From Patescibacteria group bacterium (GTDB lineage Bacteria > Patescibacteriota > Patescibacteriia > JAHIZJ01), in NCBI GenBank assembly GCA_028714495.1, contig JAQTMH010000003.1, positions 8,496 through 72,495 on the forward strand: DNA of 64,000 bases, read 5' to 3'. Position numbers and translations under genes: made by a program. Below the pieces are notes generated by a model. That model was not told the origin of the DNA. It was given only the letters and a program-made list of their open reading frames with translations, and made no database searches. Shown here in pieces: positions 11,073-45,903 of this stretch. Positions within the stretch are counted from its first letter, which is position 1; every line of letters begins with the position of its first letter.

Positions 11073-12486
11073 GCGTCCCGATCCAATTAAATTCCTCGCC
11101 CATCATGTCCATCGGACGTAAGCCGAGGTTTTTTCGTTCAGCGGCCGGAACATAGCTTTCATAGATTTCGAGAAGGGCGGGCTGAAGCAAATCCTTGTAT
11201 TTCATTGCTAATAGATGTTCAAGATAATCACGCGTCAGGCCGCCATCATAGATCACGTCAAAGGCGTATTGATTTATAATCGCGTTTTGCGCGTCACGGG
11301 CATAGGTCGCAATCGTGCCGCCAATCAATCCTTTTGTATCAATCGATTGTATTCTGGCGCATTCATCGGGCGCGTCAGTTAATACGGACAGCCAGGTTTC
11401 TTTCATCCGAGTAATATAATTGCAGGAACCGTGTCCAACCAGCGGCCGCACGCCCAGCCAAAACGTCAGATAGCCGAAAATGACAAATAAATTCGGGATA
11501 ATCGCGCCATCCGCAAGGCTTTTTATTACCTCAGCCGAATTGCCTAAATCAAGCTCAAACCGACCGTCAGTTGAACACAGGATCGTACCCCGCAGAAACA
11601 TGGGCTTGGCCTCGTTTTTCGCATCGCGATACCAGAAGAAGTGAGTACCCTTACCCTTCGCTTCGTTCCAACAACCGGTCAGGTCTTCAAAGGCGGCCAA
11701 AATACGAGCGCGAAAATCAGTATTGAAAAGACTGCGGCTCAGGATATTGTCCTCGGCCAATATCGACGGCAGAATCGTCCGCATAATATCTTCCTGGGTA
11801 ACATACAGTAAGTCGGGTATCGTCTCCCGGATCGACTTGTGAAATAGTTTTTTCCACAAAAACGCGTTGATGATTGCTATTTGGTCGTTGTAGCTTTTGG
11901 TCTGGGAAAAATCCAGTCCGCCTATCTCCTGTTCTATGGCTTTCAAAAAATCCTGTTCCTCGCCGGTAAAATCTTTCCAGCTGTCGGTCTTTCGCAAATT
12001 CTCGGTGAAATTAAAATCGCGCCGGCCGATAAAACAGCTGGCTTGATGCATTTCCTTATTCGAAAAAAGTGGCACGCGCTTGCCGTGGAGCTGAAACCCC
12101 TTACGATTGAAAAAATTGTTCGGTGGAACTACTGAACTTGTTAGTACGACGATCGGCTGTCGGTCGCCCGTGAGCAGGCGGTGGGCATTGGCGACAAGGT
12201 TCGTAGCGAGCAGTATTGGGTGGTTGAGGATGGAATGATGGTCGACAATATTGAGGCTCAGCGGCGGAGTAACGCATTCCTGGCGCTGAAAAACGCGCGC
12301 CAGATACTCAGCAATCGTTCGAGCCAAAAACCCTTGGCGTTGCGTATGGACCGAGTCGGCCGTATAGGTGAAGAGCGTATGTGAAAACTCAGTAATTGTA
12401 TCGTTGCAGTCAAAATATTCCGCCACCACCGGGGCGTATTTCCGTATACCGTTTTTCAGTATTTCGATGTTTTTTGAGTCAGGCAT
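11062..12486 (-). CDS. hypothetical protein (474 aa), co-operonic with the swivel-domain paralogs
   Basis: Long ORF overlapping paralog 3 by 11 bp. No family was recognised by eye. Confidence 0.6.
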   Translation of the reverse strand: MPDSKNIEILKNGIRKYAPVVAEYFDCNDTITEFSHTLFTYTADSVHTQRQGFLARTIAEYLARVFQRQECVTPPLSLNIVDHHSILNHPILLATNLVANAHRLLTGDRQPIVVLTSSVVPPNNFFNRKGFQLHGKRVPLFSNKEMHQASCFIGRRDFNFTENLRKTDSWKDFTGEEQDFLKAIEQEIGGLDFSQTKSYNDQIAIINAFLWKKLFHKSIRETIPDLLYVTQEDIMRTILPSILAEDNILSRSLFNTDFRARILAAFEDLTGCWNEAKGKGTHFFWYRDAKNEAKPMFLRGTILCSTDGRFELDLGNSAEVIKSLADGAIIPNLFVIFGYLTFWLGVRPLVGHGSCNYITRMKETWLSVLTDAPDECARIQSIDTKGLIGGTIATYARDAQNAIINQYAFDVIYDGGLTRDYLEHLLAMKYKDLLQPALLEIYESYVPAAERKNLGLRPMDMMGEEFNWIGTHGK

Positions 12487-12491
12487 AGTGG

Positions 12492-13058
12492 CTACTTCAC
12501 AAGATCGCCCAAGCCGATATCTTTTAATACGTCGTCGATCTTTGCATATAGCTCATCAAACGATCCGTTATTATCTATCACAAAATCAGCCATGGTCATG
12601 CATCGGCTGATATTCGGCTTTGTCGGATCAGTGGAATTCATTTCACGCTGTTCGTTTTCCACAAACTCCTCAAAATTTACGGCATCGGTTTCACTGTTAC
12701 GTTTTTTTATCCTCTCAAATCGAATTTTCAATTCCGCGTCAACAGCCAAAAGGTAAAATCTGTCTTTGTTTTTTAGGGCCTCAACTTCTCCGGGAGCGCG
12801 CAGGCTTTCAATAACGCAATTACCGCCGGCTTTTTCGGCTTCTTTATACAGCTCTTCGGCGATATAGCTTGGCGAATATTTTTTCCTCAGGTCATTCGCC
12901 ACCATCACCATGCTGTCGCGATTTTCCGGCAGACCCAGCTTTCTTATTTGCTTAAGCAAAAATTCCCTGACTGAGTAATGTTTATACCCTTTCTTTTTCA
13001 GGTATTCAACCACCGTGCCCTTGCCCGCTCCCAGTGTGCCGGTGATTCCGATGATCAT
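12492..13058 (-). CDS. P-loop nucleotide/nucleoside monophosphate kinase (dephospho-CoA kinase or dNMP kinase-like)
   Basis: N-terminal IIGITGTLGAGKGTV P-loop in a 188-aa protein. Its start overlaps the dCMP deaminase stop. Confidence 0.55.
   Translation of the reverse strand: MIIGITGTLGAGKGTVVEYLKKKGYKHYSVREFLLKQIRKLGLPENRDSMVMVANDLRKKYSPSYIAEELYKEAEKAGGNCVIESLRAPGEVEALKNKDRFYLLAVDAELKIRFERIKKRNSETDAVNFEEFVENEQREMNSTDPTKPNISRCMTMADFVIDNNGSFDELYAKIDDVLKDIGLGDLVK
12545..12664. repeat. about 120-bp direct repeat, copy B (3' end of the kinase gene)
   Basis: See copy A at 9843..9962. Confidence 0.8.
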
Positions 13059-24041: not shown

Positions 24042-26936
24042 CTATATTTGTCGATACTCACAGATATCACGAAAATCGCAAAACGAGCAATGAAACCCAG
24101 GCGTTGCTTTGAAGCTGCTTTTTTTCATTTGCTCAGCCGTTCTGATGATTTTGTCGCTGACCTTCTGAATCGCTTGGTCGGTCGCCTCAAAACCCACCTG
24201 CTGGCCGTCTTCGAGATAATGGTTAGACAACTTGGCAGGCTCCTTTTTCAGGCTTTCCCTGGCGGCCAGGGCGTAGATTAATAGCTGTTCTTGATCTTCT
24301 ACCTTTTTGCTTGACGGCCTTTTGCCTGTTTTATAATCAATGATCTCAACTGTTTTGTCTGATAGTTTATCAATTCGGTCAATCGCTCCCCTGATTGAAT
24401 ACTGGTCAATCTTGATGACAAATCCTTTTTCTAAAAAGAGAACCTCGGGAAATTTTCCTTGATACAAATTATAATAGGCTTTTAACGCTTTTAAACCTTG
24501 CGTTTTTCGTTCAGCCAGGTGAGCCGCCGATTCATACCATTCGTCAATCCAATTCTCCTCATAGAGTTTTTTCAGCGTCAGCCAATCATGCTTGAGATTG
24601 CGCTGGACTAGCTGAAAAAAATCTTTAAGCGTATTATGAATGGTTTTACCATAACTAAACGTATGTTTTGGCTCACCCGGCACTTTCAAGACAAATCTGA
24701 ACCGATATTGATAGGGGCAGATCCAAAAGGCTTTCAGCTGGGTAAAGCTTAAATACGTTGGTAAGCGATATTTAAAATGCTCGATTCGATGATTTAAGGT
24801 ATCTTCAGGATAATCCAGTCCGAGCGACTTTGCCCCGTCTACCGGTTTTACGAATCTATTATATTTTATTTCTTTCAAAAATCTTGAGGGCTTCTTTTTT
24901 TGCGGACCGCTATAGTGTTCAGCGGTAGTAAAAAACAGCCCATCTCTTGCCCGGGTCATCGCCACGTAAAAAAGCCTTCGTTCCTCCTGCAAATGAATGT
25001 CGCCGGTTGGAATAATTTCCTTGACCAAACCGTCCGGAACCTCGATTTGCTCCCGGCGCTCAATCGAGGGAAATCGCTTGTCCACCAGATTCACGATAAA
25101 AACATAGGGAAATTCTAAACCCTTGGCTGAATGAATCGTCAATATTTTTATCGCTTCCGGCCCTTCGCGAATCGCGCTCGGCGAAGGATCTTCGCCGATT
25201 TCCAGCATCATCGACAGTTCAGCCATGTAGGCTTTCACTGATTTGTCCTGATTGTGGCTCTCGAACTCCGAAATCCTGCTAAAAAATTTATTTATGTTCA
25301 ATATTTTTTCAGCATTGGCCAGGGATTCAGTCTTGGTTAGTCGCCCAATATAACCTGATTCCTTGATAAAACGATATAAAATCTGACCAACTGACTTGGT
25401 CCGGGTAAGCTCAGTATGATCTTCTATAAGCTGCTTTATTTTCTGCACCTTTTGGGCGTATCTGGCGGGCAAGCCGATTATTTTGGCCTCAGGCAAGGCC
25501 TCAAACAATGAAATGCTCTTCTGATCAGCGTAATAAAGAAGCTTGGTTAGTTCAATTAACGGAATACCAAAAACCGGCAAAGACAGAATCCGATAAACGG
25601 CTGAGCTTTCGTGATAATTATCAAGCAGTTTCAAATATGAAATTAAATCGATAATTTCCGGTTTTTGAAACAATCCCCGGGAAGCGATGAATTGAAAAGG
25701 CAGGCCTTGGGCTGACAGGGCCGTAATAAACAGATCAGCCATGTCATTCGCCCGCACCAGAATGGCAAAATCGTTCCAGCTGGAATTTTTCTTTTCTTTC
25801 AGTTCCACTATCTTCTTCAAAACCGCCATAACTTCCCGCTCTTGAGTTTCAGCGTGGATATGTTCAATTATCTGTTTTCCGGGGCGGTGTGATCTTAGTT
25901 TCTTGGTAATCGGCGTTCGGCCTCGGGACAATTGCGCTTCGAGGCGATTCGGGTTATTGAGCTGGATAAAGTCATAGGCCAGATCCAGTACCCCCTGCTT
26001 ATTTCGGTAATTCTCTGTTAAAACTATATTTGTCGCTTTGGGAAAGTCTTTTTTAAACTTCAAGATGTTGGAAATGGAAGCGCCGCGAAATTTAAAGATC
26101 GATTGGTCGTCGTCCCCGCAAACCGTTAAATTGTTCCGGGGAGCGGCTAAGAGCTTGACCAACTCATACTGAGCGTAGTTGGTATCTTGAAATTCATCAA
26201 CTAAAATATATTTAAATTGCCGCCGATATTTTTCCAGGATAGTTTTTCTGGTCTGGAGAAGCTTCAGCGCGTAGAGAATTAAATCGCCAAAATCGAGCCA
26301 GCCATTTTCGTGCAAAAGTTTTTGATATACCTCATAAGCTTGAGCGACCTCCAATATCTTTTCAGCCTCTTCTTTTTCCTCCGGGGTTTTGGCCGCGTCT
26401 TTGGCGATTCTCTCTGAGGCATAGCGCAGGTACGCGTCGGGTTCAATGTGTTCGTCTTTTAGCCTGGAAAAGTGCTTGACCAAGGCGTAGATAAAACGAT
26501 TCGGATTGCCCAGCGGCCGGTAGTATTTTAATTTGAAACGTTCGAAATTCTGCCTGACCAGAAACCATTGCTCCGGCGCCGAAAGAATCTTAAAACCGGG
26601 GCTCAAGCCCAGATCCAGGGCGTGATCTTTCAAGACCCTTTCGCCAAACGAATGAAAAGTCGAAACCCACAAATCCACGTAGCCGTAAGGCAAGAGCTGA
26701 TCAACCCGCTCTTCCATCTCGCCCGCGGCTTTGTCAGTGAAGGTCAGAGCCAATATCTGGTCAGGTTCAGCTTTCTTATTATAAATCAACCAGGCCAAAC
26801 GATGGGTAATCACCGTGGTCTTTCCGGTTCCGGCTCCGGCTACGATTAAGAGCGGCCCGTCACCAAATTTGACCGCTGCTTTTTGCTGGATATTTAATTG
26901 TTTAAATGTTTTATCAAAAAAATCTGTTTTTAGCAT
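24042..26936 (-). CDS. UvrD/PcrA-family helicase fused to a C-terminal PD-(D/E)xK (RecB/AddA-like) nuclease domain with a Cys cluster
   Basis: Walker A LIVAGAGTGKTTV and UvrD helicase motifs throughout. The C-terminus carries CPYQYRF ... CSFCDFRDIC, typical of RecB-family nuclease/iron-sulfur domains. Confidence 0.85.
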   Translation of the reverse strand: MLKTDFFDKTFKQLNIQQKAAVKFGDGPLLIVAGAGTGKTTVITHRLAWLIYNKKAEPDQILALTFTDKAAGEMEERVDQLLPYGYVDLWVSTFHSFGERVLKDHALDLGLSPGFKILSAPEQWFLVRQNFERFKLKYYRPLGNPNRFIYALVKHFSRLKDEHIEPDAYLRYASERIAKDAAKTPEEKEEAEKILEVAQAYEVYQKLLHENGWLDFGDLILYALKLLQTRKTILEKYRRQFKYILVDEFQDTNYAQYELVKLLAAPRNNLTVCGDDDQSIFKFRGASISNILKFKKDFPKATNIVLTENYRNKQGVLDLAYDFIQLNNPNRLEAQLSRGRTPITKKLRSHRPGKQIIEHIHAETQEREVMAVLKKIVELKEKKNSSWNDFAILVRANDMADLFITALSAQGLPFQFIASRGLFQKPEIIDLISYLKLLDNYHESSAVYRILSLPVFGIPLIELTKLLYYADQKSISLFEALPEAKIIGLPARYAQKVQKIKQLIEDHTELTRTKSVGQILYRFIKESGYIGRLTKTESLANAEKILNINKFFSRISEFESHNQDKSVKAYMAELSMMLEIGEDPSPSAIREGPEAIKILTIHSAKGLEFPYVFIVNLVDKRFPSIERREQIEVPDGLVKEIIPTGDIHLQEERRLFYVAMTRARDGLFFTTAEHYSGPQKKKPSRFLKEIKYNRFVKPVDGAKSLGLDYPEDTLNHRIEHFKYRLPTYLSFTQLKAFWICPYQYRFRFVLKVPGEPKHTFSYGKTIHNTLKDFFQLVQRNLKHDWLTLKKLYEENWIDEWYESAAHLAERKTQGLKALKAYYNLYQGKFPEVLFLEKGFVIKIDQYSIRGAIDRIDKLSDKTVEIIDYKTGKRPSSKKVEDQEQLLIYALAARESLKKEPAKLSNHYLEDGQQVGFEATDQAIQKVSDKIIRTAEQMKKSSFKATPGFHCSFCDFRDICEYRQI

Positions 26937-26938
26937 AT

Positions 26939-27655
26939 CTATATTTTAAACCTTTTTTCGGATGAATCAACCTTTATTTTATATTTCAGGAGTCTCCTGG
27001 CCAACCTGGGATGTTTCCGATAAAGCTTTGCCCAAGCCACTATTAACGCGTGATATTCATTGTAGAGGCTGGGCTTTTTCGGCAATCTAGTTTCAAACCA
27101 ATTTTGATATTCATCGTAATTACTAAATTGCTTATGAAAAACCTTGAGCCAGCGTTTGGTGTAGGTATCAACCACAAAAATCGGTTTTCCGCCGGCATAC
27201 AAAAGAATCGAATCAGATGTTTCTGGACCAAGCCCGTATAAACCTAAAAGCTCATTTCGGCATTGTGCCAATTCATTTCGAAAGAAAACTTTTAAATCTC
27301 CCAGGTAGTCTCTTTTGAGCCAATTTGAAAACGCCTTCAGCTTTTTTGCCTTTTGATTGTAGTAGCCGCTGGGCCGAATTAAATCAGCCAGGCGCTTTTG
27401 TTTCACCTTATTTAAGGCGTCTGGTTTAAGCAACCGACTCTTTTTTAAGTTTATCAAGGCCTTGGCCGCGTTTTTCCAAGCCGCGTTTTGGGTAAGAATC
27501 GCGCCAACCGCGATTTCAAACATTTGCCCAGAGGTTAATCTTGGCCGCTTTTTATAAACCGGCGTCCATTCTCCTTTTCGCTTTTCTAAAATCGGCCACC
27601 AACCTTGAGGGCCAAAATAGCGTAATATACGCCGGTACAGTACCAAGGGTTTCAT
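26939..27655 (-). CDS. HhH-GPD superfamily DNA glycosylase (endonuclease III/MagIII-like, no Fe-S cluster)
   Basis: Helix-hairpin-helix LYGLGPETSDSILLYA followed by a conserved Asp (VVDTY). Confidence 0.65.
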   Translation of the reverse strand: MKPLVLYRRILRYFGPQGWWPILEKRKGEWTPVYKKRPRLTSGQMFEIAVGAILTQNAAWKNAAKALINLKKSRLLKPDALNKVKQKRLADLIRPSGYYNQKAKKLKAFSNWLKRDYLGDLKVFFRNELAQCRNELLGLYGLGPETSDSILLYAGGKPIFVVDTYTKRWLKVFHKQFSNYDEYQNWFETRLPKKPSLYNEYHALIVAWAKLYRKHPRLARRLLKYKIKVDSSEKRFKI

Positions 27656-27759
27656 GTATCTATTATACCACGTGGATAAACGAATGCTTTTCTGTCTATT
27701 TTATTTATCACAAAACTCGCGAAACTTACGCGCTTCGAACCAAATCGATTATCGAGATG

Positions 27760-28212
27760 TTATATCTTTTCTACTAAAATTACTGCCTGCTGATCAGTAC
27801 CCAAACCCTGCGCCTGTTGCAGGGTAAAACGATAGCCATTCAATTCCTTTATTGGTTCATCCACAGTGCCGCTTTGTTCAGCCAAGCTCAGCAACAAACC
27901 ATCAGTGTCATTTATAGTCAGCCTGACCACGTAAACCCGACCTAGCTCCGCCCCCTCGGTCTTTATCGCGACCCCTTCATTTGTTATGGTTAAACTCCCT
28001 AAAACATTTTTCGCGGTCGCGCCGCTTTTGATAACAAGCTGCTGGCTGGTATTTTCTGGTTTATTTTCATTCGCTTCACCACCCGCGGCATTCGAATTGT
28101 CCGTTTTTGAACTGTCGTTAAAAAACGGCTTGAGATTGAATTTCCAAGCTGCGAATATTGTCCCGCCAATAATCAGAACAATGATGATTAGTATGATGTA
28201 GTTTTTGCTCAT
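27760..28212 (-). CDS. membrane-anchored hypothetical protein
   Basis: N-terminal TM helix followed by a low-complexity extracytoplasmic region. Confidence 0.45.
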   Translation of the reverse strand: MSKNYIILIIIVLIIGGTIFAAWKFNLKPFFNDSSKTDNSNAAGGEANENKPENTSQQLVIKSGATAKNVLGSLTITNEGVAIKTEGAELGRVYVVRLTINDTDGLLLSLAEQSGTVDEPIKELNGYRFTLQQAQGLGTDQQAVILVEKI

Positions 28213-28293: not shown

Positions 28294-29091
28294 CTAGACC
28301 GGTCTCAATGTTCCAAACCATACCTGCCAAGCCAAAAGAGATTTGGCGAGCAGGCTAAGTATGATATAAACTCGCTCGCCGTATAAATAATCTCGCCATT
28401 TTCCCACCTTTTTATACTGCAGCACCATATTTACGGCGAAGACGTTAAAGAATACGAAAAGTGAAAAGAAGATCCAATAGACAAAGGTCGGAGCCTGGCC
28501 AGTGGCACCGCCGGCAAAAAAGAGATAAAGCGCGATCGCCACCCAGGGTATTGCGCCAGCCAGTGAACCAAAATAAAACGACGTCCAATTTGTCTTGGCG
28601 GTTGTTTGGTTGTGCAGCTCCATCATCCAGCCAAAAAGTATCATCATCATATTCAGGAAAAACATCAGCATAAGGCTGACGCCATCATACATTCCCACCA
28701 GTGCGGCAATAACCACAATCATCAACGATGAACTGAAAGCATATTCTATCCAACGCGCGTAATTAGCGCCTTTGAGCAGATTCCGATTATACCATTCGTT
28801 AATCCCCGGCAATGAAATCATCAAATGCGCCAAGGCTGATAAAAACAAAAATCCGGCCACTAAGGGACCCAATCGAAGAGTAAACAACTCTTTTAAAACC
28901 GGCTCAAGCTTACCCGTTATTTTATTGAATTCCACAAAGGCCGAGTTGATGGGCAAGCTGAATTTATTGCTTAAAGCTAACATCAGAATGCCCTGGGCCA
29001 GATGAAGAAAAAACATCATTAAATTAAAACGCTTCAGTCTTTTAAAACGGTCGCTGTTGTCCGCAGTTGAGGAAATGTTTGAATCTTCCAT
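28294..29091 (-). CDS. heliorhodopsin
   Basis: 265-aa 7-TM protein. The match to heliorhodopsin 48C12 is compared from memory of its sequence: RWIEYAFSSSLMIVVIAAL vs RWVEYSLSSSVMIVLIAQ, MILFGWMME vs MILFGWLQE, GERVYIILSLLAKSLLAWQVWFGTL vs GERAYIVLSLVAKSALAWQIFSGTL. A TM7 lysine and a TM3 glutamate are both present. Confidence 0.9.
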   Translation of the reverse strand: MEDSNISSTADNSDRFKRLKRFNLMMFFLHLAQGILMLALSNKFSLPINSAFVEFNKITGKLEPVLKELFTLRLGPLVAGFLFLSALAHLMISLPGINEWYNRNLLKGANYARWIEYAFSSSLMIVVIAALVGMYDGVSLMLMFFLNMMMILFGWMMELHNQTTAKTNWTSFYFGSLAGAIPWVAIALYLFFAGGATGQAPTFVYWIFFSLFVFFNVFAVNMVLQYKKVGKWRDYLYGERVYIILSLLAKSLLAWQVWFGTLRPV

Positions 29092-29138: not shown

Positions 29139-29345
29139 TTACTCTCCCAAAATCCACTCAAGCAGTTTGATTTGTTCTTTAGTAACCTTCTCTTTTAAAT
29201 CAAATTCCGCTCTCAGCTCTTTACTTTGTTCGGAATCCTCTTGTAAATCTTCGTCTTGAAGCGCCTCTTCAAATTCATCATCGATTCCGTCCTCAATCTC
29301 CTCTAGCTCTTCTATTTTTTGTCTGATTTCATCTTCAGTTTTCAT
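29139..29345 (-). CDS. small acidic hypothetical protein
   Basis: 68 aa, highly acidic (E/D-rich). Coding status is uncertain. Confidence 0.3.
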   Translation of the reverse strand: MKTEDEIRQKIEELEEIEDGIDDEFEEALQDEDLQEDSEQSKELRAEFDLKEKVTKEQIKLLEWILGE

Positions 29346-29505
29346 GTTTGATATTTAGCTAATAATAAAGATTTTTTCGTATTGACAATTCGAATTTATT
29401 TTATGTCTTATGAACTAATAAATCAAGCGTCCAGGCAGTGCTAACGAATACCGCCGGATTTTAAACCGGCGGCATTCTATTCGTTCTTATCGTTTGCCCT
29501 GCCTA

Positions 29506-30063
29506 TTATTCCGTTTCATTCGTATCAAAAGCATTTGTGTTATCCGAGGTGCTGTCAGTCTTCGAAGCGCTGATCACTACCGTGTTTTTCCCGTCTTCGC
29601 TACCCTTGTTTATCCCAACCGAAACCATGCGATTTTCCTTTTCGGCCCAGATCGCGGCTGAACCCTCATAAACCATTGAGCTGGTTATGGCCCAGCCGTC
29701 CGCCTTTAGTTCGGTATCATAGAGGGCTTTTACTTCGCTGACGGTCTTTGAAGTTTCAATCGAGATTGAATAATCCTTGTCTTTGGTGTAAGTGAAGGCG
29801 GCGGTAATATTTCCGTCAACCAAATAAATATCGTCAGGAAAACCGTCGGGCAAGCTGACGTTCTCGCCGGCCTCATATGAACTGTTGTTGGTATTGATTT
29901 TTACCGTATTTTTGCTGACATCGACGTCAGCCTGGCCTTTAGTCGCTGTTTCCAGAGCCTTTTCAGCGGCTTTCTCGGCTGAGGATTTGCCGCAGCCGGT
30001 TAAAACCAATGCGATCGCCACAACGAGCATTGGCGCAATAAACCAAATTTTTTTGTTAAGCAT
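29506..30063 (-). CDS. lipoprotein (signal peptide plus lipobox LTGC)
   Basis: MLNKKIWFIAPMLVVAIALVLTGCG. A TTGTCA-N17-TAATAT promoter lies upstream on the minus strand. Confidence 0.6.
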   Translation of the reverse strand: MLNKKIWFIAPMLVVAIALVLTGCGKSSAEKAAEKALETATKGQADVDVSKNTVKINTNNSSYEAGENVSLPDGFPDDIYLVDGNITAAFTYTKDKDYSISIETSKTVSEVKALYDTELKADGWAITSSMVYEGSAAIWAEKENRMVSVGINKGSEDGKNTVVISASKTDSTSDNTNAFDTNETE

Positions 30064-30141
30064 GGTTATATAATTAATTAAATATTAGCCAATTTAATAT
30101 TATCATATCATCAAACAAATGACAAATAAACTCGCACCCCC

Positions 30142-30169
30142 TTGACAAATATTAGGGGCGGTGTATAAT
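30142..30169 (+). promoter_or_regulatory. consensus sigma70-type promoter (TTGACA-N16-TATAAT)
   Basis: TTGACA at 30142-30147 and TATAAT at 30164-30169. It reads into the GC-rich ORF-free region. Confidence 0.6.
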
Positions 30170-30176
30170 GCCAAAG

Positions 30177-31075
30177 TTGCGTGTTTTTACGGGGTGATAT
30201 TGCTGCTACCGCTGGGGCGCTAGCTAGTCAGATCTTTTGGCTACCTAATGCCTCGGCAATACCCATAGGCCATATAGGAGGGACTTGCCAATGGGCTAGC
30301 AAGCTAATTACCGCGCGAACGGACTTGAGAAAACTGCAAGGAGCTTCAGTCCACCGGTTGTCTGACCCCGCTCTCAAAGTGGTGTCAGGCAACCACTCTA
30401 ATGCGGTCTACTGCGGTCCACCACAGGGAGGAAGGCCCATGCAGACACGCTACGAAAAGTAAGGTTTGCAGCCGGAAGGTTGCTCATGCGGAAACCTGGA
30501 CATACCCGCGGGTTACACCTGGCACTTTGCCGAAAACCCGAAAAGGAAAATCCGTCTTTCGAAGGCATCGCCAGATTGACGGAATGTCCCCTTGACGCCT
30601 GGGTATAAGGCGGAATCCTCCAAAATCCCTGGAGGTCCCTCTTTGCCAGTACGTCGCCGGCACTATGCAGAATGGCGATGATGCTGTCTCCGAGGTGTTC
30701 GCGGCACCGTTGTCGCCAGGGTATCGCGCTGCTGCTAATACGGCATCTCGCAGTGGCGCCACGAGGTTGCACTTTGATAAAATCAATTCGTTCGATCTTC
30801 CAGGGCAGGGGTCGCCCCACGCGTGTCGCCGGGCTTTCCGCGATCAGTCGCGCGCGGGCCACCCCTCCCTGGTCTGTCTGGACCCGTTATGGTGGCCGGG
30901 AGCCAATCTTCCGGTTGCGGTGGGGATTTGCCGCCGGCTTTCGCTGGCGGTGCCACTGCTGCGTGCTTCGCGCGCTGCGAGCACCACTCCTGGGGTCTGG
31001 GCACGGGGCGGAGAATTTCATTGGCCGGGGCAGCTTGCTGCCACCGACTCAATGAGACTCCGCCCCTCTTTTTAT
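30177..31075 (+). ncRNA. candidate large structured noncoding RNA (about 0.9 kb, unclassified)
   Basis: About 60% GC in a roughly 43% GC genome. No ORF longer than about 160 aa, and every ORF is Arg/Pro/Ala-rich and overlapping on both strands. Bounded by a perfect promoter and an intrinsic terminator. Internal hairpins are numerous (for example GGCAG-CTTG-CTGCC and AGTGG ... CCACT). Confidence 0.45.
31005..31075 (+). terminator. intrinsic terminator ending the GC-rich element
   Basis: GGGGCGGAG ... CTCCGCCCC 9-bp stem followed by TCTTTTTATTT. Confidence 0.55.
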
Positions 31076-31148
31076 TTGTTTAGAACCAATAAAAGTATCG
31101 AGTTACAATCATTAATTCAGTTTATACATAGCCGGAGCCACTACAAAT

Positions 31149-31272
31149 AACCCCGCCCCTATCCTAAAGATGTCTGTCGTAATAGTAAAAGCATAGCCGC
31201 TAGGCGGCTTCGCCTTACGTCCATGAAATACTTATGACATTACTGGGATAGGGGCGGGGTTTGATATTTTTT
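31149..31272 (+). terminator. 16-bp perfect GC-rich inverted repeat enclosing an 81-nt loop, followed by a T-run
   Basis: AACCCCGCCCCTATCC ... GGATAGGGGCGGGGTT then TGATATTTTTT. It shares the GGGGCGG core with the upstream terminator and the promoter spacer. Confidence 0.45.
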
Positions 31273-31302
31273 AATTTAGCACTACAAATGATCAAACGCA
31301 GG

Positions 31303-31347
31303 CGATGAAACCTTGCCCCATACTCGATACGATGGTTTCCTCGCCTA
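31303..31347 (-). terminator. probable terminator of the ATP synthase operon
   Basis: GGCGATGAAACC ... GGTTTCCTCGCC 12-bp stem, 27 nt downstream of atpC. Confidence 0.4.
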
Positions 31348-31373
31348 CGTTGATATTATCGTTATAAATACCT

Positions 31374-31841
31374 TTATTCACCCGACTGTTTTTTCTTCAG
31401 CTCGTCTTCTCTTATTACCCGATCAGCCCGTTTCGTGCGGTGGCGTTCAGCTACCCGAAGCCTGGCCAATTCCTTCTCGATCTTGGACATTACGGCGGCG
31501 AATTCCTTCTGATCGGTCCGGCGGGTTTTCAGAAGCTCTTCAGCCTTTTGATGCGCTTCTTTGGCTCTCTCAATGTCTATTTCCTCGGCCCGTTCCGCGG
31601 TTTCAGCCAGGACCACGACTTTATTTGGCTGGATCTCGGCAAAGCCGGCTGAAATGGCCATCGGGACCTCATCAGTCCCTTTCTTCACCCGCAGCTCGCC
31701 GGCTGACAGCGCCGTAATCAAAGGCACATGATGAGGCAGTACCGTAATCTCTCCCATTGGCGTAGGCAGAGATACCTGGTCAATCTCGTCATTGTAGACG
31801 ACGCGTTCAGGCGTGACAATTTGGAAATTTATCTTAGCCAT
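31374..31841 (-). CDS. atpC: ATP synthase F1 epsilon subunit
   Basis: Epsilon beta-sandwich N-terminus followed by a helical C-terminus (start at MAKINFQIVTPE). Last gene of the atp operon. Confidence 0.85.
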   Translation of the reverse strand: MAKINFQIVTPERVVYNDEIDQVSLPTPMGEITVLPHHVPLITALSAGELRVKKGTDEVPMAISAGFAEIQPNKVVVLAETAERAEEIDIERAKEAHQKAEELLKTRRTDQKEFAAVMSKIEKELARLRVAERHRTKRADRVIREDELKKKQSGE

Positions 31842-31851
31842 AGATAATTTA

Positions 31852-33243
<1,392 letters not shown>

Positions 33244-36790: not shown

Positions 36791-37018
36791 TTAAACGAAC
36801 TTGATTATCAAGGCTACCACCAGCGCGTAAATCGCGATAGCTTCGGCAAAAGCGATGGCAATCAACATCGGCACTTGGATTTTTGAAGCTGCCTCGGGAT
36901 TTCGGCCGATCGATTCCATGGCTTTAGCCGCCAATTTGCCAATGGCCATAGCCGGCGAGAATCCGCCGATCGCGATGGTCAGGGCCGCGGCCCACATTTT
37001 TACTGATTCTGGTTCCAT
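36791..37018 (-). CDS. atpE: ATP synthase F0 c subunit
   Basis: 75-aa hairpin proteolipid with a conserved carboxylate ([15 protein letters not shown]). Confidence 0.9.
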
Positions 37019-37110
37019 TTTTTTAGTTCCTTATTGGCACCGGTATGGCTTACGACTAGGTAGGTTGTTTAAAGTCGGCCAAACTGATGCCGTTTAATTA
37101 ATATTAATTA

Positions 37111-38723: not shown

Positions 38724-39317
38724 TTATTTTAATGTTTTGCTTATTATATCCCAATTAAAATATTGATATGGTGATTTATGATATTTGCTTGGCAATGATC
38801 CTTTTATGGGATTACGTTTGATGTAATTTAACACCGCTTTAAAATACTCATCATTATTGATAATCCGGGTATAAAAACGGCGCTGCCAAATCGTATATGG
38901 AATATCGTGTTTTTTACGCAATTCGTTGATAAAATAGGATTTGATGCCGTGTAATAAATCGGTAATATTATATCCGCCATCCTCCCTTTCCCCGTTCCGA
39001 ACGCGGGCCGCCGTGCCCGCGTTTGTTGTTTTATGTCTAACATTTTTTATTTGTCGCGCAACCACTGCGGTCATGTATGTACGTCCACGCGCAACCACTG
39101 CGGGTTGCGCTCGGGTGTTCTTCATTACCAATAAATGTATATGATCTGGCATAATTTGATACGATATGACATCAAAACACTTAATATTGCATGTCTTAAA
39201 TATTACCCTGCTTAATAAACGCGTATATTTTATATCCTCAAAAAACGGCAATCCTTCGTTTGTCCGAAACGTTACGAAATACGGATATTCATCTTGATAG
39301 ATTCTTCTTTGAGTCAT
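38724..39317 (-). CDS. IS200/IS605-family HUH tyrosine transposase-like protein (RAYT-like), possibly degenerate
   Basis: HUH motif MPDHIHLLV. The C-terminal IWQRRFYTRII resembles the RAYT WQRRFHDH motif, but the HDH is lost. An in-frame low-complexity insertion is encoded by a duplicated CGCGCAACCACTGCGG hairpin repeat (39046..39120). Confidence 0.6.
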   Translation of the reverse strand: MTQRRIYQDEYPYFVTFRTNEGLPFFEDIKYTRLLSRVIFKTCNIKCFDVISYQIMPDHIHLLVMKNTRAQPAVVARGRTYMTAVVARQIKNVRHKTTNAGTAARVRNGEREDGGYNITDLLHGIKSYFINELRKKHDIPYTIWQRRFYTRIINNDEYFKAVLNYIKRNPIKGSLPSKYHKSPYQYFNWDIISKTLK

Positions 39318-41128: not shown

Positions 41129-43357
41129 TTACAAACTATTGTATAAATCAAGCCAATCGCCAAGATCGCCAGGTTCAAATTTTTTACTTGACTCATCAAA
41201 ATATACCCATCTTCCAGTATAATTTCTTTGATCGGTGTTTGTTACTATACCACCAAAAATCTTTTTTCCTTTTTTCTTTTCACAATATATATATTTATAA
41301 AACCCATCAATTTTTGGACCAGCCATTTGTTTTGTAAAACCTGACTTTGTGTCAAATAACCCAATTCTGCCATCCTTCAATTTTACTATAAAATCCACAT
41401 AAAAAGGTTTTTGTTCACCATTCTTGTATGGAATAGCAAAAAATATGGAATCACGATCTCCATTTTTAAACCACCATTCTATCTTATTTGAACCATTTAT
41501 ATATTCAATAAAGGCTTTTTCCGTCCTCCATTCATTCTTACTATAAAAAGGCTGCATTATTGATTTCTTTCTTTCTTCTTGTGCATAATCCTCATTAAAC
41601 CGCATAGACTTAGGTATATTCCATTTTTCTTGAACAATTAATTCACTATCCCTTTTTTCTACCTCTTTTTGGTATTCATCTTTAGTCTTACTTAAAACAT
41701 TGAGAAAATGCTTACTATTTTTTTCACTTAATACTATTTGAACAATTTCATCCCATTTTTCGGCATATTTCATTTTAAGTTCATTTTCAAAAAACTTGTA
41801 TATTGATTCTTTAACTCTACCCACTGACCGATCTTCTGGATAGAAAGGAGCCAAATTTTTTCTAACGAAGTAATCAATTAATTTCTGTAAATCAAAGCCA
41901 CTGGCTTTTATTTCCTTATTCCCCGAAATTTTCACTTTTGCCAAAATATCAATGTCTTCTGCCCGCCAGTTAGTCACTATTTTTTGATCAATTTTTTTTG
42001 ACTTGATATCTACTTTACTTTTTAAACCATACACTTTCGCAAATTTCAAAAATAACTCGATAAAAAACGGAGATAATCTAGTTTTTTCTCTATGACGCCT
42101 AGAATAATAGGATTTTAAATTAATTGGTTTATAGCTTTTTATTCTCTTACTAATATAAATTGTGATGTAATTCCTCGCGATATCTTCTTGAATTTCAATA
42201 TTATCTAAATTCGTGTAAACATAGCCGTAATTTAAAATCTCATTTGGATAGTGACCAAAATCTGGCTCGGGCATACGCATTATTCTGCCGACTGTTTGAA
42301 TAGAAAAAATTGGGCTGTGCCATTCTCTAAATAAAACCAAAATCTGCGCCCTGGGGCAGTCCCAGCCCAAAGCTATTGCCTGTTTAAAAATTAAGACTTC
42401 AACTTTACTATCATTCTTTTCAACATATTCCTTATTAACATGTTCGCCAGAAAGCCAGATAGCGAGTTTGCTATTATCCTTTTCTGTCGTAATTTTATAT
42501 TTATTTTTCAAAATACTTTCCACTCTTTCCCTTATTCTATCTTCTAAGCTTGATTTTCTGTCGGGTAATTGTATTAAAATTAATGGATTAACATTAACTC
42601 CTTCTTTTTTGAAGGCTTTTACAATTTCAATTCTTTTTTGAATAGCCGCGCCTATAACTAACTCTTCGCTGCCACCACTTAGATTTTGCGTCTTTATTTT
42701 TCCTTGCTTTATAATATTGTCAAAATTATCGTTCAGAATGACCGCCTTTTTGATCATACCATCTTTTTTTACATCTTCTAGTAATACATCAACTTGGAGA
42801 TCGCCACTTAGAACTGGCGTGGCCGAGACCTCAATCGTTAATTTAGGATTAATCATCTCAATTAAACCTTGTGAAATTTCGCTGGTGGCGTGGTGGTGGG
42901 CTTCATCAATGACCAAGATTATTTCTCTGCCTTCTTCCCTTGTATTTTCAATAACTTTTGATAAATTGAAATCTTGTTCATTGTCGCGAATATATATATT
43001 GTCTTTTTTATTAATGCTTTCCCAATTGAAAAACAAAATTTCGTTCTGATCAATTCTTATATCGTCTAAATCATCAAAATATGAACACTTTATAGCACGG
43101 CTTTTTTCAAAATAATTTTCCAGCTTCTCTTTACTTTGGATATGAAGTTGCCGGGGAGCGGTCCAAATAAAGCCGAATAATTGTTTGATTTCTCTATCAT
43201 CTGCCAATTGCTTTAAAAACTCGGCCATCATTATTGTCTTGCCAGAACCCGTGGGCGCTTTAAAAACTAATTTTTTACTACCAGAGTACTCCAAAAGTCT
43301 TTTAGTTTTGTTCATTAAATCGTCTATTGCATTTTCCTGGTATATTTTTAGTTGCAT
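41129..43357 (-). CDS. res: Type III restriction enzyme Res subunit (SF2 helicase-like)
   Basis: Walker A KAPTGSGKT and the DEAH box VIDEAHH. Very low GC. Confidence 0.8.
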   Translation of the reverse strand: MQLKIYQENAIDDLMNKTKRLLEYSGSKKLVFKAPTGSGKTIMMAEFLKQLADDREIKQLFGFIWTAPRQLHIQSKEKLENYFEKSRAIKCSYFDDLDDIRIDQNEILFFNWESINKKDNIYIRDNEQDFNLSKVIENTREEGREIILVIDEAHHHATSEISQGLIEMINPKLTIEVSATPVLSGDLQVDVLLEDVKKDGMIKKAVILNDNFDNIIKQGKIKTQNLSGGSEELVIGAAIQKRIEIVKAFKKEGVNVNPLILIQLPDRKSSLEDRIRERVESILKNKYKITTEKDNSKLAIWLSGEHVNKEYVEKNDSKVEVLIFKQAIALGWDCPRAQILVLFREWHSPIFSIQTVGRIMRMPEPDFGHYPNEILNYGYVYTNLDNIEIQEDIARNYITIYISKRIKSYKPINLKSYYSRRHREKTRLSPFFIELFLKFAKVYGLKSKVDIKSKKIDQKIVTNWRAEDIDILAKVKISGNKEIKASGFDLQKLIDYFVRKNLAPFYPEDRSVGRVKESIYKFFENELKMKYAEKWDEIVQIVLSEKNSKHFLNVLSKTKDEYQKEVEKRDSELIVQEKWNIPKSMRFNEDYAQEERKKSIMQPFYSKNEWRTEKAFIEYINGSNKIEWWFKNGDRDSIFFAIPYKNGEQKPFYVDFIVKLKDGRIGLFDTKSGFTKQMAGPKIDGFYKYIYCEKKKGKKIFGGIVTNTDQRNYTGRWVYFDESSKKFEPGDLGDWLDLYNSL

Positions 43358-43361
43358 AATT

Positions 43362-44213
43362 TTATAATAACGCTTTTCCTAATCTTATTTTTGATAAACA
43401 ATTAATTAGTGTTTTAAATGTCATATAATAATTAGCTGCTATTTTAAGATAATTTGTATAAAAATCGCTAAATTGTTCGTCGCTAATGTCTTTATCTAAA
43501 AATTCTAAATCTCTATAATTTGATTTTATTCTATAGCAGTAAAAAAATTCAAAAAGATTAACTGTACTATATTCTAAAAATTCTTTTTTTTCAAGTCTAT
43601 TTTTTTTAGATCTATAATCTCTTATTTTCCTTTTTCTTTGAAAATCTTCAAGTTTATAACTAATAAGCTTTTTAAGTAATTGTGTAATTCTTTCGCCTAA
43701 ATTTATACCAATTACTTTTAGATTAGCGCCTGATTTAGCCTTATAATTCATAATTTTTAAACACTGAAAATTTGAGTTGAACATCTTTTTATTAAAAATT
43801 ATTTCTTTCCTTTCGATGTGACCCTTTAAACTTTTTATCAAGCCCTCGTGCGAACAATTAAATGAAGATTCTTGACCAGAAATAAGATATTCTAATATCA
43901 AAAATAAATTAAACATTAAATAATATATTTTTACGGCTATCCATGGTACACAAACCTCGGCAAAACCAATATTTGTTTTAATATTCTCCGATTCAAGTTG
44001 AAGGTTCTTTATTATCAATTTTATTAGATTGATCTTTTTTTTAAGAATTTTCCCTTCGTATATTTTTTTCTTAAAATCTAATTTACATTCAGCACTTAAA
44101 CCTTCGGAAATAGTGTTAAAACAGATAACATAATTCAAGTGCGTCATAAAATCCGGAGGGTGTTCTTTTTTATACTCTTCGTTTTCTTTTTCTATCCACT
44201 TACTTAAATCCAT
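43362..44213 (-). CDS. hypothetical protein encoded between mod and res (283 aa, K/N/I/L-rich)
   Basis: Overlaps both the mod stop and the res start by a few bp, which suggests translational coupling. About 25% GC. No family recognised. Confidence 0.55.
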   Translation of the reverse strand: MDLSKWIEKENEEYKKEHPPDFMTHLNYVICFNTISEGLSAECKLDFKKKIYEGKILKKKINLIKLIIKNLQLESENIKTNIGFAEVCVPWIAVKIYYLMFNLFLILEYLISGQESSFNCSHEGLIKSLKGHIERKEIIFNKKMFNSNFQCLKIMNYKAKSGANLKVIGINLGERITQLLKKLISYKLEDFQRKRKIRDYRSKKNRLEKKEFLEYSTVNLFEFFYCYRIKSNYRDLEFLDKDISDEQFSDFYTNYLKIAANYYMTFKTLINCLSKIRLGKALL

Positions 44214-44217
44214 TTCT

Positions 44218-45903
44218 TTATTTAAAAATTCTTCTATAAACTCTCAAAATTGCCTCAGGTATCGGAGATAATCTTACTTTTTGTTTTATATCTTCAAATT
44301 CTTCGTCAAATGTTTCATCGCCTAACGAAAATATGTAGACACTAAATTTACCTTTAAAATTCTTTATTACCTTCTTAAAGACGGAAATTGCCAATGGATC
44401 ATAAATTATACCAGTATAGTGATCAGTATTTTTGAAAATTTTATAATTGTTCTGGGCCAATACGGGTTTGAAAGTACCCTCTTTTACACAAAGCATCTCG
44501 GTCGCCTCGGCGGTAAGTTTAATTTTATTTTTATCTGTGGGTTCGCCATCAACAAAATCAGTTTTGAAATATTTTAGTATACCACCCAAACCTTTTATTT
44601 TTTCGCCTTTCAAATTTTCATAACCCATAATAACTTTCTTGACTCGTGGATAACAAATGTTTGTGGCTATGTCATTTTCATTGTTTGTACATAAAATAAA
44701 CTGGCGATTACCATTATCTTCTTTATTTAGTTCTAAAACCGCTTGACTAGTCGTACCTGTTCCAGCCATAAAATCCAAAATTACAGAATTTTTTTCAGTC
44801 GATAAATTCAACAAATATTTGATTAAAAGATAAGGTTTTGGATAACTAAATACTTTACCATGGAACATTTTTTCTAATTCCTTCGTAGCCATAGTGCTTG
44901 AGTATTGTGAGATTACTGCAAATGGAGGCCGTTGTCTCTCAATAGGATTATTCTCATTATCTACATTTAAATATTGCTTTGAATATACTACCCAATTACC
45001 TGATTTATTCTTATCAATTTTTATAAAGCCGTTTGCAAGACCCCACTTAACCTTTTCTTTGGACCACCTCCAACAAGCTTTTTTATGTTTGAAACTAGGC
45101 CAAATTTCTTTTCTATCGGGTGCAATAATTGGGTAGTCTAGTGATTTTGAGTACTGAATACTAGCACTATTTAGTTTAATCAATTTATGTTTTCCTCTTT
45201 CTTTTTCATATTTATCTGTATAGGTATAGGCATCTTCATCTGGAATTTTTTCTTTATTTATTAAAAATTTGGGCTTATTTTTTGCATACACCAAAACGTA
45301 TTCATGTTTAATTTTGAAGTGCTTACTATCCGAACTACCTCCACCCTCGCGATTTTCCCATACTAAAATGGCAACAAAATTATCTTCACCAAACAACCCA
45401 ATATTTTTATCATCCATTAAAAGTTTTAATTGCGCCACTTCATTATCATCTATAGAAATAAAAATTGCTCCGGTATCTTTTAATAAATATTTTGCTAATT
45501 TTAAACGTTTTTCCATAAACGCAAGCCATTTAGAATGGCGGTAGGCATCTTCTCTATCAACATAGAGGTCATTAAAAATAAAATCTTTACTACCTGTGTT
45601 ATAGGGAGGATCAATATATATGACATCAATTTTTTTGCTATGAGTATAATTCAAAACTGAAAGCGCATGATAATTATCGCCTTCAATCAATAGATTAACC
45701 GGCTTGGTTTTGTCCGTTTCAATTTCTTTGTTTTTAACTTCTTTCAATATCGGCAATTTTTCTTTACACAATTCTACCACGTCCTCCAGCTTCTCTTCCC
45801 AAACCAAACCATATTTTTTACTTTTCTTTAATTCTTTCTTCAATCGTGCCACTTCGGCAAGAAGCTTTGCTTTGGATAAATTTTTATTATCATTTGTTTC
45901 CAT
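44218..45903 (-). CDS. mod: Type III RM Mod subunit (beta-class N6-adenine/N4-cytosine DNA methyltransferase)
   Basis: DPPY motif IV (VIYIDPPYNTG) precedes motif I (FMAGTGTT). This motif order defines the beta class typical of Type III Mod. Confidence 0.85.
   Translation of the reverse strand: METNDNKNLSKAKLLAEVARLKKELKKSKKYGLVWEEKLEDVVELCKEKLPILKEVKNKEIETDKTKPVNLLIEGDNYHALSVLNYTHSKKIDVIYIDPPYNTGSKDFIFNDLYVDREDAYRHSKWLAFMEKRLKLAKYLLKDTGAIFISIDDNEVAQLKLLMDDKNIGLFGEDNFVAILVWENREGGGSSDSKHFKIKHEYVLVYAKNKPKFLINKEKIPDEDAYTYTDKYEKERGKHKLIKLNSASIQYSKSLDYPIIAPDRKEIWPSFKHKKACWRWSKEKVKWGLANGFIKIDKNKSGNWVVYSKQYLNVDNENNPIERQRPPFAVISQYSSTMATKELEKMFHGKVFSYPKPYLLIKYLLNLSTEKNSVILDFMAGTGTTSQAVLELNKEDNGNRQFILCTNNENDIATNICYPRVKKVIMGYENLKGEKIKGLGGILKYFKTDFVDGEPTDKNKIKLTAEATEMLCVKEGTFKPVLAQNNYKIFKNTDHYTGIIYDPLAISVFKKVIKNFKGKFSVYIFSLGDETFDEEFEDIKQKVRLSPIPEAILRVYRRIFK

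Follow-up and report, generated by a model that had tools for sequence, protein, structure and literature searches.

The stretch of Patescibacteria group bacterium DNA analysed here (64,000 nucleotides of contig JAQTMH010000003.1, assembly GCA_028714495.1; hereafter the window) carries a heliorhodopsin gene close to two DNA-repair genes, which encode an HhH-GPD glycosylase and a UvrD-like helicase-nuclease. Nearly all genes of the window lie on the minus strand, and in the order of transcription an F-type ATP synthase operon is followed by a GC-rich stretch, a predicted lipoprotein gene, a small acidic open reading frame (ORF) termed p68, the rhodopsin gene, a second ORF termed p150, the glycosylase gene and the helicase-nuclease gene (Table 1). 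The original prediction placed the rhodopsin gene directly downstream of the repair genes and proposed a light-sensing link to DNA repair; the gene is transcriptionally upstream of them, and p150 intervenes. Our analysis indicates that the gene encodes a standard heliorhodopsin of ABY1/Kerfeldbacteria-like Patescibacteria (candidate phyla radiation, CPR), and that its adjacency to the MagIII-like glycosylase and the UvrD-nuclease is most likely incidental; we put the probability of this reading at roughly 0.8.

Profile searches identify the 265-aa protein as a heliorhodopsin: the Pfam family Heliorhodopsin (PF18761) covers residues 19-262 and is matched end to end (profile positions 1-242 of 242; E 4.1e-97; 324.7 bits against a cut-off of 26.7), and the NCBIfam equivalog NF038020 (HeR) scores 334 bits against a cut-off of 100. 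Of the proteins with a solved structure, the archaeal TaHeR comes closest (6is6; E 3.4e-74; 51% of 250 aligned residues identical), and the full-length likeness to heliorhodopsin 48C12 that had been noted by eye is borne out by an alignment of residues 15-264 with that protein (6su3; E 1.7e-56; ~41% identity). The two motifs singled out in the original prediction also hold: RWIEYAF (R113-F119) in transmembrane (TM) helix 3 contains the counterion Glu, E116, aligned to E107 of 48C12; and SLLAKSLLAWQ (S246-Q256) in TM7 contains the Schiff-base Lys, K250, aligned to K241, within an SxxxK motif (S246-L-L-A-K250; S237...K241 in 48C12). Kovalev et al. described the residues of the Schiff-base cavity and the cytoplasmic polar cluster of 48C12 (PMC7049168), and 15 of the 17 that we mapped are identical in the window protein (among them, window = 48C12: H30=H23, Q33=Q26, S85=S76, H89=H80, N110=N101, R113=R104, W114=W105, Y117=Y108, E158=E149, E239=E230 and S246=S237); the two mismatches are Q213 to Met, which is also Met in TaHeR, and S109 to Ala. 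When 78 homologues (65-97% identity) are aligned with the window protein, K250, E116, H30, H89 and S246 do not vary.

The predicted structure agrees with this assignment. An AlphaFold2 model built from the homologue alignment (predicted local distance difference test, pLDDT, 89.3; predicted TM-score, pTM, 0.85) has seven helices and an AB-loop beta-hairpin with strands 45-56 and 61-73; Foldseek aligns it to 6is6 with TM-scores of 0.88/0.94 (root-mean-square deviation 2.0) and to 6su3 with 0.84, compared with 0.52-0.63 for type-1 rhodopsins, and query-normalised TM-scores to heliorhodopsins are 0.82-0.88. Lys and Arg residues counted by hand, helix ends included, number 14 on the N-terminal-side loops versus 1 on the short opposite loops, with 5 in the AB hairpin, and a scripted tally of loops only gives 9 versus 6 when the long AB hairpin is counted; as judged by the positive-inside rule alone, this charge pattern is consistent with the inverted topology, with a cytoplasmic N-terminus. 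Basic residues are kept in the cytoplasmic (intracellular) loops ICL1 and ICL3 (R102, K106, K227, K228, K231 and R233), and the extracellular half is hydrophobic, like that of other heliorhodopsins. A preprint (10.1101/2025.11.27.691015) proposes which residues of 48C12 frame the lateral fenestration, and carotenoid binding is proposed for them; their counterparts in the window protein are F172/S176/G179/F215/N216/A219 for F162/C166/G169/F206/N207/A210.

The closest database protein, named "heliorhodopsin HeR [Patescibacteria group bacterium]" (assembly GCA_028717285.1), is 97% identical; the next relatives, from Patescibacteria and Kerfeldbacteria metagenome-assembled genomes (MAGs), reach 77% identity; and the exact window protein also occurs in the Logan assembly of run SRR22315509, which, like SRR22315508, contains DNA of this organism. 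Because CPR heliorhodopsins with the SxxxK motif have already been catalogued (PMC9166423, PMC8612252) and the 97%-identical protein is already annotated, the protein is of a known kind and essentially of known sequence, one more member of the catalogued CPR heliorhodopsin clade.

Repair genes and the conservation of their position

The identities originally given to the two repair genes stand. The helicase-nuclease has UvrD-helicase, UvrD_C and PDDEXK_1 domains (PF00580, E 3e-80; PF13361, E 3e-56; PF12705, E 3e-33) and a C-x2-C-x5-C motif at its C-terminus; its gene starts 2 nt past the glycosylase stop. It falls below all NCBIfam equivalog cut-offs (for PcrA, 513 against 911) and thus receives no named orthologue. 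The closest solved relative of the HhH-GPD glycosylase is the 3-methyladenine glycosylase MagIII of H. pylori (1pu6; E 2.3e-23): D163 aligns with the catalytic Asp of the MagIII VVD motif; a Glu occupies the position of the EndoIII catalytic Lys; and, as read from alignment and sequence, there is no C-terminal Fe-S Cys cluster. It scores 109 bits against NCBIfam PRK13913, below the 192-bit equivalog cut-off, and we file it as MagIII-like. MagIII-type activity is alkylation repair, not repair of ultraviolet photoproducts.

For comparison we took heliorhodopsin loci with at most 10 kb of flank per side, 80 of them from genomes that represent a species and another 80 from metagenomes; removal of near-identical rhodopsin genes left 145 non-redundant loci with 1.66 Mb of flank. 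The window's arrangement of HhH-GPD and UvrD-nuclease genes beside the rhodopsin occurs in two of the 145 only, and these belong to the same species: L082 is the window's own strain, and L081 is a 97%-identical relative. The first 80 species loci hold no homologue of either repair protein within 10 kb (E<1e-5), and in L155 and L157, whose rhodopsins share 56% identity with that of the window, a remotely UvrD-like match lies on the other strand. A Pfam census of 262 genes at up to two positions on either side of the rhodopsin in 79 species revealed no dominant family (ABC_tran 5, PMT_2 5, MsrA 3, response regulators 3, alpha/beta hydrolases 3, pyrimidine-dimer glycosylase 2, DUF2177 2), and ABC transporter ATPases lie within 1.5 kb of the rhodopsin in nine loci. 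This agrees with published accounts, in which the neighbour groups and partners of heliorhodopsins are diverse (PMC11109279, PMC8612252).

The repair genes recur in related genomes with no rhodopsin beside them. In L167 (GCA_041650335.1, JBAZLK010000002.1) the array comprises the atp operon, a radical-SAM gene, HhH-GPD (61% identical), Ldh_2, UvrD-nuclease (74%), the 127-aa membrane protein (71%), PheS, two small ORFs and PheT, with no rhodopsin in it; the heliorhodopsin on contig 1 of the same MAG (L001), 74% identical to that of the window, lies among unrelated genes. L170 repeats the order HhH-GPD, Ldh_2, UvrD-nuclease, membrane protein and PheS without a rhodopsin, and in L168 atpC is followed by two other ORFs and then HhH-GPD, again without a rhodopsin. 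Because these three loci keep parts of the array without a rhodopsin, we assign the repair genes, on gene order, to a housekeeping backbone and read the segment between atpC and the glycosylase gene as a variable slot filled by the rhodopsin cassette, which makes the juxtaposition with the repair genes most likely incidental. The lineage-specific cassette consists of the lipoprotein gene, p68, the rhodopsin gene and p150, and its slot lies between atpC and the glycosylase gene in an array that is otherwise conserved, comprising atp operon, HhH-GPD, UvrD-nuclease, PheS, PheT and GyrB. In the comparison with L081 the most diverged genes are those of the rhodopsin (95.0% nucleotide identity) and p150 (94.0%), the backbone genes being 97-100% identical, and no homologues of p68 and p150 were detected outside the window's species among the 145 loci.

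Transcription signals, called here as consensus matches only, point the same way. The extended -10-like element TGGTATAAT is conserved in L081 (about 5300-5336), where it is preceded by a TTGACG -35 supplied by a 114-nt insertion; a further insertion of 206 nt, which has a long palindrome and resembles a miniature inverted-repeat transposable element (MITE), lies in the same p150-glycosylase spacer of L081. Because the conserved TGGTATAAT ends so close to the glycosylase ATG, it suggests that the glycosylase and helicase genes form a separate, nearly leaderless transcription unit. On the other side, p68 and the rhodopsin gene are probably co-transcribed as a small unit of their own, with the strong palindromic hairpin after the lipoprotein gene as a possible terminator between that gene and the p68-rhodopsin unit.

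By analogy with TaHeR, 48C12, TfHeR and OcHeR, the window protein would be a retinal-binding photosensor of the ordinary type, oriented with its N-terminus inside; it would bind all-trans retinal after uptake through the lateral fenestration, and would have a slow photocycle with no ion pumping; light might then switch the contact of its positively charged cytoplasmic loops with a partner protein (PMC9769723, PMC11109279). Uptake of external retinal would be needed because CPR genomes generally lack blh. The window accords with this, as originally remarked: Pfam scans of 61 of its 64 non-overlapping ORFs of at least 80 aa and several shorter ORFs (E cut-offs 1e-4 to 1) found no carotenoid- or retinal-synthesis family and no photolyase family. 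The scans left aside a gene for a phosphoenolpyruvate (PEP)-utilising enzyme (9987-11072) and, in the atp operon, atpD, atpG and atpA, which were named by reading and from syntenic annotation, and a plus-strand ORF (36855-37097). The conserved fenestration residues make a reliance on retinal from outside plausible, and uptake through the fenestration has been discussed for CPR rhodopsins and TaHeR (PMC9296517).

Several observations weigh against an incidental adjacency or loosen its footing. The arrangement is kept in the sole close relative, L081, yet nucleotide identity of 94-100% means that this says little; the rhodopsin and repair genes share a strand with spacers of 81 nt (rhodopsin to p150) and 104 nt (p150 to glycosylase), and read-through transcription is possible; other repair neighbours recur near heliorhodopsins, namely the pyrimidine-dimer glycosylase described below and, in the literature, photolyase and UvdE, and the swap-in of a different repair enzyme at the same position is conceivable. 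Moreover, the link between L001 and L167 rests on MAG binning, which may be wrong, and we infer topology, chromophore binding and photochemistry from characterised relatives. The partner protein, in any case, cannot be read from this locus.

Table 1. Positions of the features discussed, in the window or in the heliorhodopsin locus named (strand of PF03013 genes relative to the rhodopsin gene)
Feature	Sequence	Position	Strand	Remarks
Heliorhodopsin gene	window	28294-29091	minus	ATG start, 265 aa; seven TM helices and AB-loop beta-hairpin
F-type ATP synthase operon	window	atpC 31374-31877; operon through 38142	minus	last gene atpC; upstream edge of putative variable slot
GC-rich stretch	window	30064-31373		1.3 kb, without credible gene
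Predicted lipoprotein gene	window	29506-30063	minus	185 aa; LTGC lipobox; PF27226 AF_1845-like
p68, acidic ORF	window	29139-29345	minus	68 aa; no family match; 47 nt upstream of rhodopsin
p150 ORF	window	27760-28212	minus	150 aa; N-terminal TM anchor; between rhodopsin and glycosylase; no family match
HhH-GPD glycosylase gene	window	26939-27655	minus	238 aa; PF00730, E 5e-14
UvrD/PcrA helicase and Cas4/AddB-like nuclease gene	window	24042-26936	minus	964 aa; PF00580, PF13361, PF12705
127-aa membrane protein, PheS, two small membrane proteins, PheT, GyrB	window	below 24042		in order of transcription
Hairpin then T-run, terminator-like	window	27720-27737	minus	after p150; conserved in L081
TGGTATAAT, extended -10-like element	window	27662-27670	minus	6 nt before glycosylase ATG; conserved in L081
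Promoter-like site TTGATT-17-TAAAAT	window	29398-29426	minus	9/12, weak; upstream of p68 and rhodopsin
G+C-rich palindromic hairpin CCGCCGG...CCGGCGG	window	29451-29472		just after lipoprotein stop
Candidate structured non-coding RNA	window	30176-31075	plus	~0.9 kb; variable slot; divergent from lipoprotein gene
Sigma-70 promoter TTGACA-16-TATAAT	window	30142-30169	plus	12/12; consensus match
Long hairpin and T-run, intrinsic-terminator-like	window	31005-31078	plus	read from sequence and fold
PF03013 glycosylase gene	L005	10802-11134	same	3 nt downstream (called ORFs)
PF03013 glycosylase gene	L009	10799-11131	same	3 nt downstream (called ORFs)
PF03013 glycosylase gene	L085	10799-11137	same	7 nt downstream (tblastn estimate)
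PF03013 glycosylase gene	L029		same	~87 nt downstream (tblastn)
PF03013 glycosylase gene	L065	1124-1555	same	0.6 kb upstream
PF03013 glycosylase gene	L006	8374-8790	opposite	1.2-1.3 kb upstream
PF03013 glycosylase gene	L050	6747-7205	opposite	1.5 kb downstream
PF03013 glycosylase gene	L068	17013-17363	same	6.3 kb downstream

Other candidate partners and functions

A different repair enzyme recurs near heliorhodopsins elsewhere. A pyrimidine-dimer DNA glycosylase (PF03013, T4 endonuclease V-like; Pfam E 3.5e-25) is encoded near the rhodopsin in eight non-redundant loci, within 1.5 kb in seven of them, which are CPR loci, and on the same strand with a gap of 3-87 nt in four. The zone up to 1.5 kb from the rhodopsin makes up 22.3% of all flank bases; on that basis seven of eight corresponds to a binomial P of 1.8e-4, and collapsing the related trio L005, L009 and L085, whose rhodopsin genes share 81-84% nucleotide identity, gives five of six and a P of 2.7e-3. 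Both values assume independent lineages, and the calculation came after the pattern had been noticed. The glycosylase is the fourth commonest family within 1.5 kb, after the ABC ATPases, the lipoprotein family and the PMT_2 glycosyltransferase. In four loci an MsrA gene is found no more than 1.5 kb from the rhodopsin, and in two of the loci with PF03013 (L006 and L050) MsrA, confirmed by Pfam, stands beside the glycosylase. A class I photolyase adjoins the rhodopsin in L049 (Acidimicrobiia) only, and the census of neighbours yielded at most one photolyase per batch.

It is possible, if unlikely, that the window's rhodopsin serves a photo-damage response whose partner, for example a pyrimidine-dimer glycosylase or a methionine sulfoxide reductase, is encoded elsewhere in the genome, outside the window. 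Such a role would fit the proximity of PF03013 and MsrA genes in other CPR lineages, as well as published proposals that tie heliorhodopsins to light-induced oxidative stress (PMC8612252, PMC9166423). However, tblastn of the 64-kb window with two pyrimidine-dimer glycosylases and E. coli PhrB found nothing (this class I query may miss class II photolyases), few of the 143 loci show such neighbours, no experiment is known to tie heliorhodopsins to these enzymes, and in the literature searched we found no paper that joins a heliorhodopsin with a pyrimidine-dimer glycosylase. Given that it was spotted post hoc and concerns a minority of loci, we regard the association in other CPR lineages, which involves no gene of the window, as a lead and not a result. 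As a lead, the recurrence of this glycosylase, sometimes with methionine sulfoxide reductases, supplies a concrete candidate partner, open to testing, for heliorhodopsins in CPR bacteria, where their function is not yet settled; together with the GC-rich transcription unit described below, it is worth more than the rhodopsin finding itself.

Genes of three of these loci form small damage-repair clusters: in L006, MsrA (9277-9765) lies beside the glycosylase (8374-8790); in L050 (5803-6252, 6239-6754 and 6747-7205), MsrA and an ORF read by eye as MsrB lie beside the glycosylase; and in L029 an ORF that resembles endonuclease IV by eye (12097-12960) lies 1.3 kb from the rhodopsin. Separately, a family of 177-197-aa proteins is encoded within 1.5 kb of the heliorhodopsin in four loci (L075 8435-8983, L079 7091-7624, L011 7138-7731, others), and its member in L075 has no Pfam match.

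We consider a partnership between the rhodopsin and its cassette neighbours (the lipoprotein, p68 and p150), for instance in chromophore acquisition or in a membrane complex, improbable. No neighbour of this rhodopsin lineage is better conserved than the lipoprotein family, whose gene precedes the rhodopsin in 7 of 143 non-redundant loci, always within 1.5 kb and in differing surroundings; a second TM-anchored family stands beside the rhodopsin in six loci; and p68 is separated from the rhodopsin gene by 47 nt. Yet the lipoprotein also occurs without a rhodopsin: three of the three homologues examined from the lipoprotein side have none nearby (one of these three genomes carries a rhodopsin on another contig), and we reject it as an obligate partner. 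Its AlphaFold model (pLDDT 81.5) gives weak DcrB/PsbP-like matches with TM-scores of 0.33-0.41, from which no ligand-binding role is drawn, and p68 and p150 are confined to the species as far as homologues can be detected.

A broader proposal, which we regard as quite improbable, is that CPR heliorhodopsins regulate base-excision repair in dependence on light, that the recurrent and in places operonic pairing with a pyrimidine-dimer glycosylase is ancestral, and that the lineage of the window has swapped in, downstream of the rhodopsin, a MagIII-like glycosylase coupled to a helicase-nuclease. If true, the link to repair put forward originally would be real, though not conserved by gene family.

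A more specific form is very improbable. In it, the heliorhodopsin would bind its neighbour, the MagIII-like glycosylase and/or the UvrD-nuclease, and modulate it in response to light, on the pattern of TfHeR and a class II cyclobutane pyrimidine dimer (CPD) photolyase; the repair enzyme would stand in for the pyrimidine-dimer glycosylase of sister lineages. The genes share a strand with short spacers and keep their arrangement in L081, but the pairing is missing in the 143 other non-redundant loci, and the repair genes belong, as argued above, to a backbone conserved without a rhodopsin. TfHeR offers a precedent for the stimulation of a repair enzyme through charged cytoplasmic loops (PMC9769723), and the window protein keeps basic residues in ICL1 and ICL3; the two sides are here separated by an intervening ORF, a terminator-like hairpin, a -10-like element of the glycosylase's own and a spacer that tolerates insertions. 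In favour, a DNA glycosylase, though of another superfamily, follows the rhodopsin by 3-87 nt in L005, L009, L085 and L029; against, the closest characterised relative of the window's glycosylase removes alkylated purines, not a light-induced lesion. Coupling of light to these repair genes thus fails the comparison with related genomes, and we advise against carrying it forward as a prediction of function.

That the protein is not a sensor, and either transports protons, as some viral heliorhodopsins are reported to do, or harvests light through a carotenoid antenna, is extremely unlikely: the residues proposed for carotenoid binding are conserved, an ATP synthase operon lies 2.3 kb away and an atp operon lies within 10 kb in four other lineages, but TaHeR and 48C12, the closest characterised relatives, show no ion transport, five such loci are by our estimate about what chance would give for a 20-kb neighbourhood in genomes of ~1 Mb, and the extracellular half has the hydrophobic character seen in other members of the family.

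Candidate structured RNA and further features of the window

Part of the GC-rich stretch in the variable slot looks like a separate plus-strand transcription unit for a candidate structured RNA. Besides its promoter and terminator-like signals, the segment has a GC content of 55-67% versus ~43% nearby, and folding-energy z-scores of -7.7 on the plus strand and -3.35 on the minus strand. In L081 its first 632 nt are 98.7% identical, both signals are intact, and a 66-nt segment is fully replaced by one that still forms a long hairpin closed by the same CCAGGG/CCCUGG stem; this comparison is between two near-identical sequences and provides no real covariation evidence. The product could conceivably be a 93-aa ORF (30181-30462) located right after the predicted transcription start. 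If real, the RNA would be unusually large for a bacterial non-coding RNA; no evidence ties it to the rhodopsin.

Searches of this stretch pointed to none of the more obvious identities. Rfam gave no match, either over the whole window at the gathering score or locally in the GC-rich stretch at E<=1, and no tRNA or transfer-messenger RNA was found in it. An intron of the group I type within a tRNA gene, an arrangement known from Patescibacteria (PMC13011429), is unlikely, with neither an Intron_gpI match nor recognisable tRNA halves. We likewise rejected a gene or pseudogene, on the absence of a credible Pfam match among seven ORFs and a short eighth: six of the seven have no match, as have 17 scanned ORFs elsewhere in the window, and the match of the seventh is at chance level (E >=0.04). 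A 161-aa ORF of the stretch has a single match, read as low-complexity, among 1.84 billion representatives, and tblastn and blastn found none for the stretch in plasmids or phages. In L005 and L009, the GC-rich sequences that precede the lipoprotein gene proved to be ordinary protein genes and not homologues of the candidate RNA. Short same-sense identities occur between the candidate RNA and the neighbouring messages, 30538-30552 with lipoprotein mRNA 29631-29645 (15/15) and 30939-30958 with rhodopsin mRNA 28500-28519 (18/20); on the plus strand these are inverted repeats, possibly due to chance in GC-rich sequence.

Other parts of the window have features of their own. A low-GC island (41129-45903; 30-31% versus ~47%) resembles a type III-like restriction-modification unit, with a ResIII/DEAD helicase of 742 aa, a 283-aa ORF without family and an N6/N4 DNA methylase of 561 aa, and appears horizontally acquired because it lies between two IS200-like Y1 transposase genes (38724-39317 and 46781-47326). 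In the segment 6838-12486 (minus), three tandem genes (501, 491 and 361 aa) each encode the PEP-utilising-enzyme mobile domain alone, an unusual set; a 474-aa ORF without family match lies directly upstream in the direction of transcription, and the set is embedded among the nucleotide-metabolism genes Tmk, Tdk, ThyX, dUTPase and dCMP deaminase. The ThyX homologue (4182-5930, minus) has 582 aa and two Thy1 domain stretches, about twice the usual length, possibly through internal duplication or fusion. In addition, a CarS-like gene (CDP-archaeol synthase family, PF01864) adjoins a CDP-alcohol phosphatidyltransferase gene in this bacterial genome (15659-16201 and 16204-16653, both minus).

Comparison with known heliorhodopsin systems

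TaHeR, from Thermoplasmatales archaeon SG8-52-1 (6is6, 7u55), shares with the window protein the Schiff-base Lys, the Glu, two His and the Ser, as well as Met at the Q213 position, the AB beta-hairpin and the fenestration; they differ in host, which is archaeal for TaHeR and bacterial (CPR) for the window protein, in the EF loop, which is four residues longer in the window protein, and in that the latter is known from sequence and model. The founding member 48C12, from a freshwater actinobacterium (6su3, 6uh3), is more distant than TaHeR, with E107, K241, H23, H80, S237, S76, N101, R104, E149 and E230 in common with the window protein. From the CPR heliorhodopsins of Chiriac et al. 2022 (PMC9166423) and Bulzu et al. 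2021 (PMC8612252), which are of the same phylum and have the same TM7 SxxxK motif (here SLLAK), there is no difference of substance.

The neighbourhood compares less closely with published ones. The study of OcHeR and its ABC transporter partner OmrDE defined ten neighbour groups (PMC11109279), of which our census recovers the ABC ATPases, the alpha/beta hydrolases and DUF2177; the window locus has none of the ten, and neither HhH-GPD nor UvrD is among them. Published links to repair concern class II photolyase (PMC9769723) and, for zinc-finger heliorhodopsins, photolyase and UvdE (PMC8612252). With TfHeR of Trichococcus flocculiformis (PMC9769723) the window shares nearby repair genes and the basic cytoplasmic loops that TfHeR needs for binding. 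In contrast, the partner of TfHeR is a class II CPD photolyase that is encoded in the same operon and recurs in several genera, whereas the adjacency in the window is specific to the species, no photolyase was found in the window, and the repair genes have a predicted promoter element of their own.

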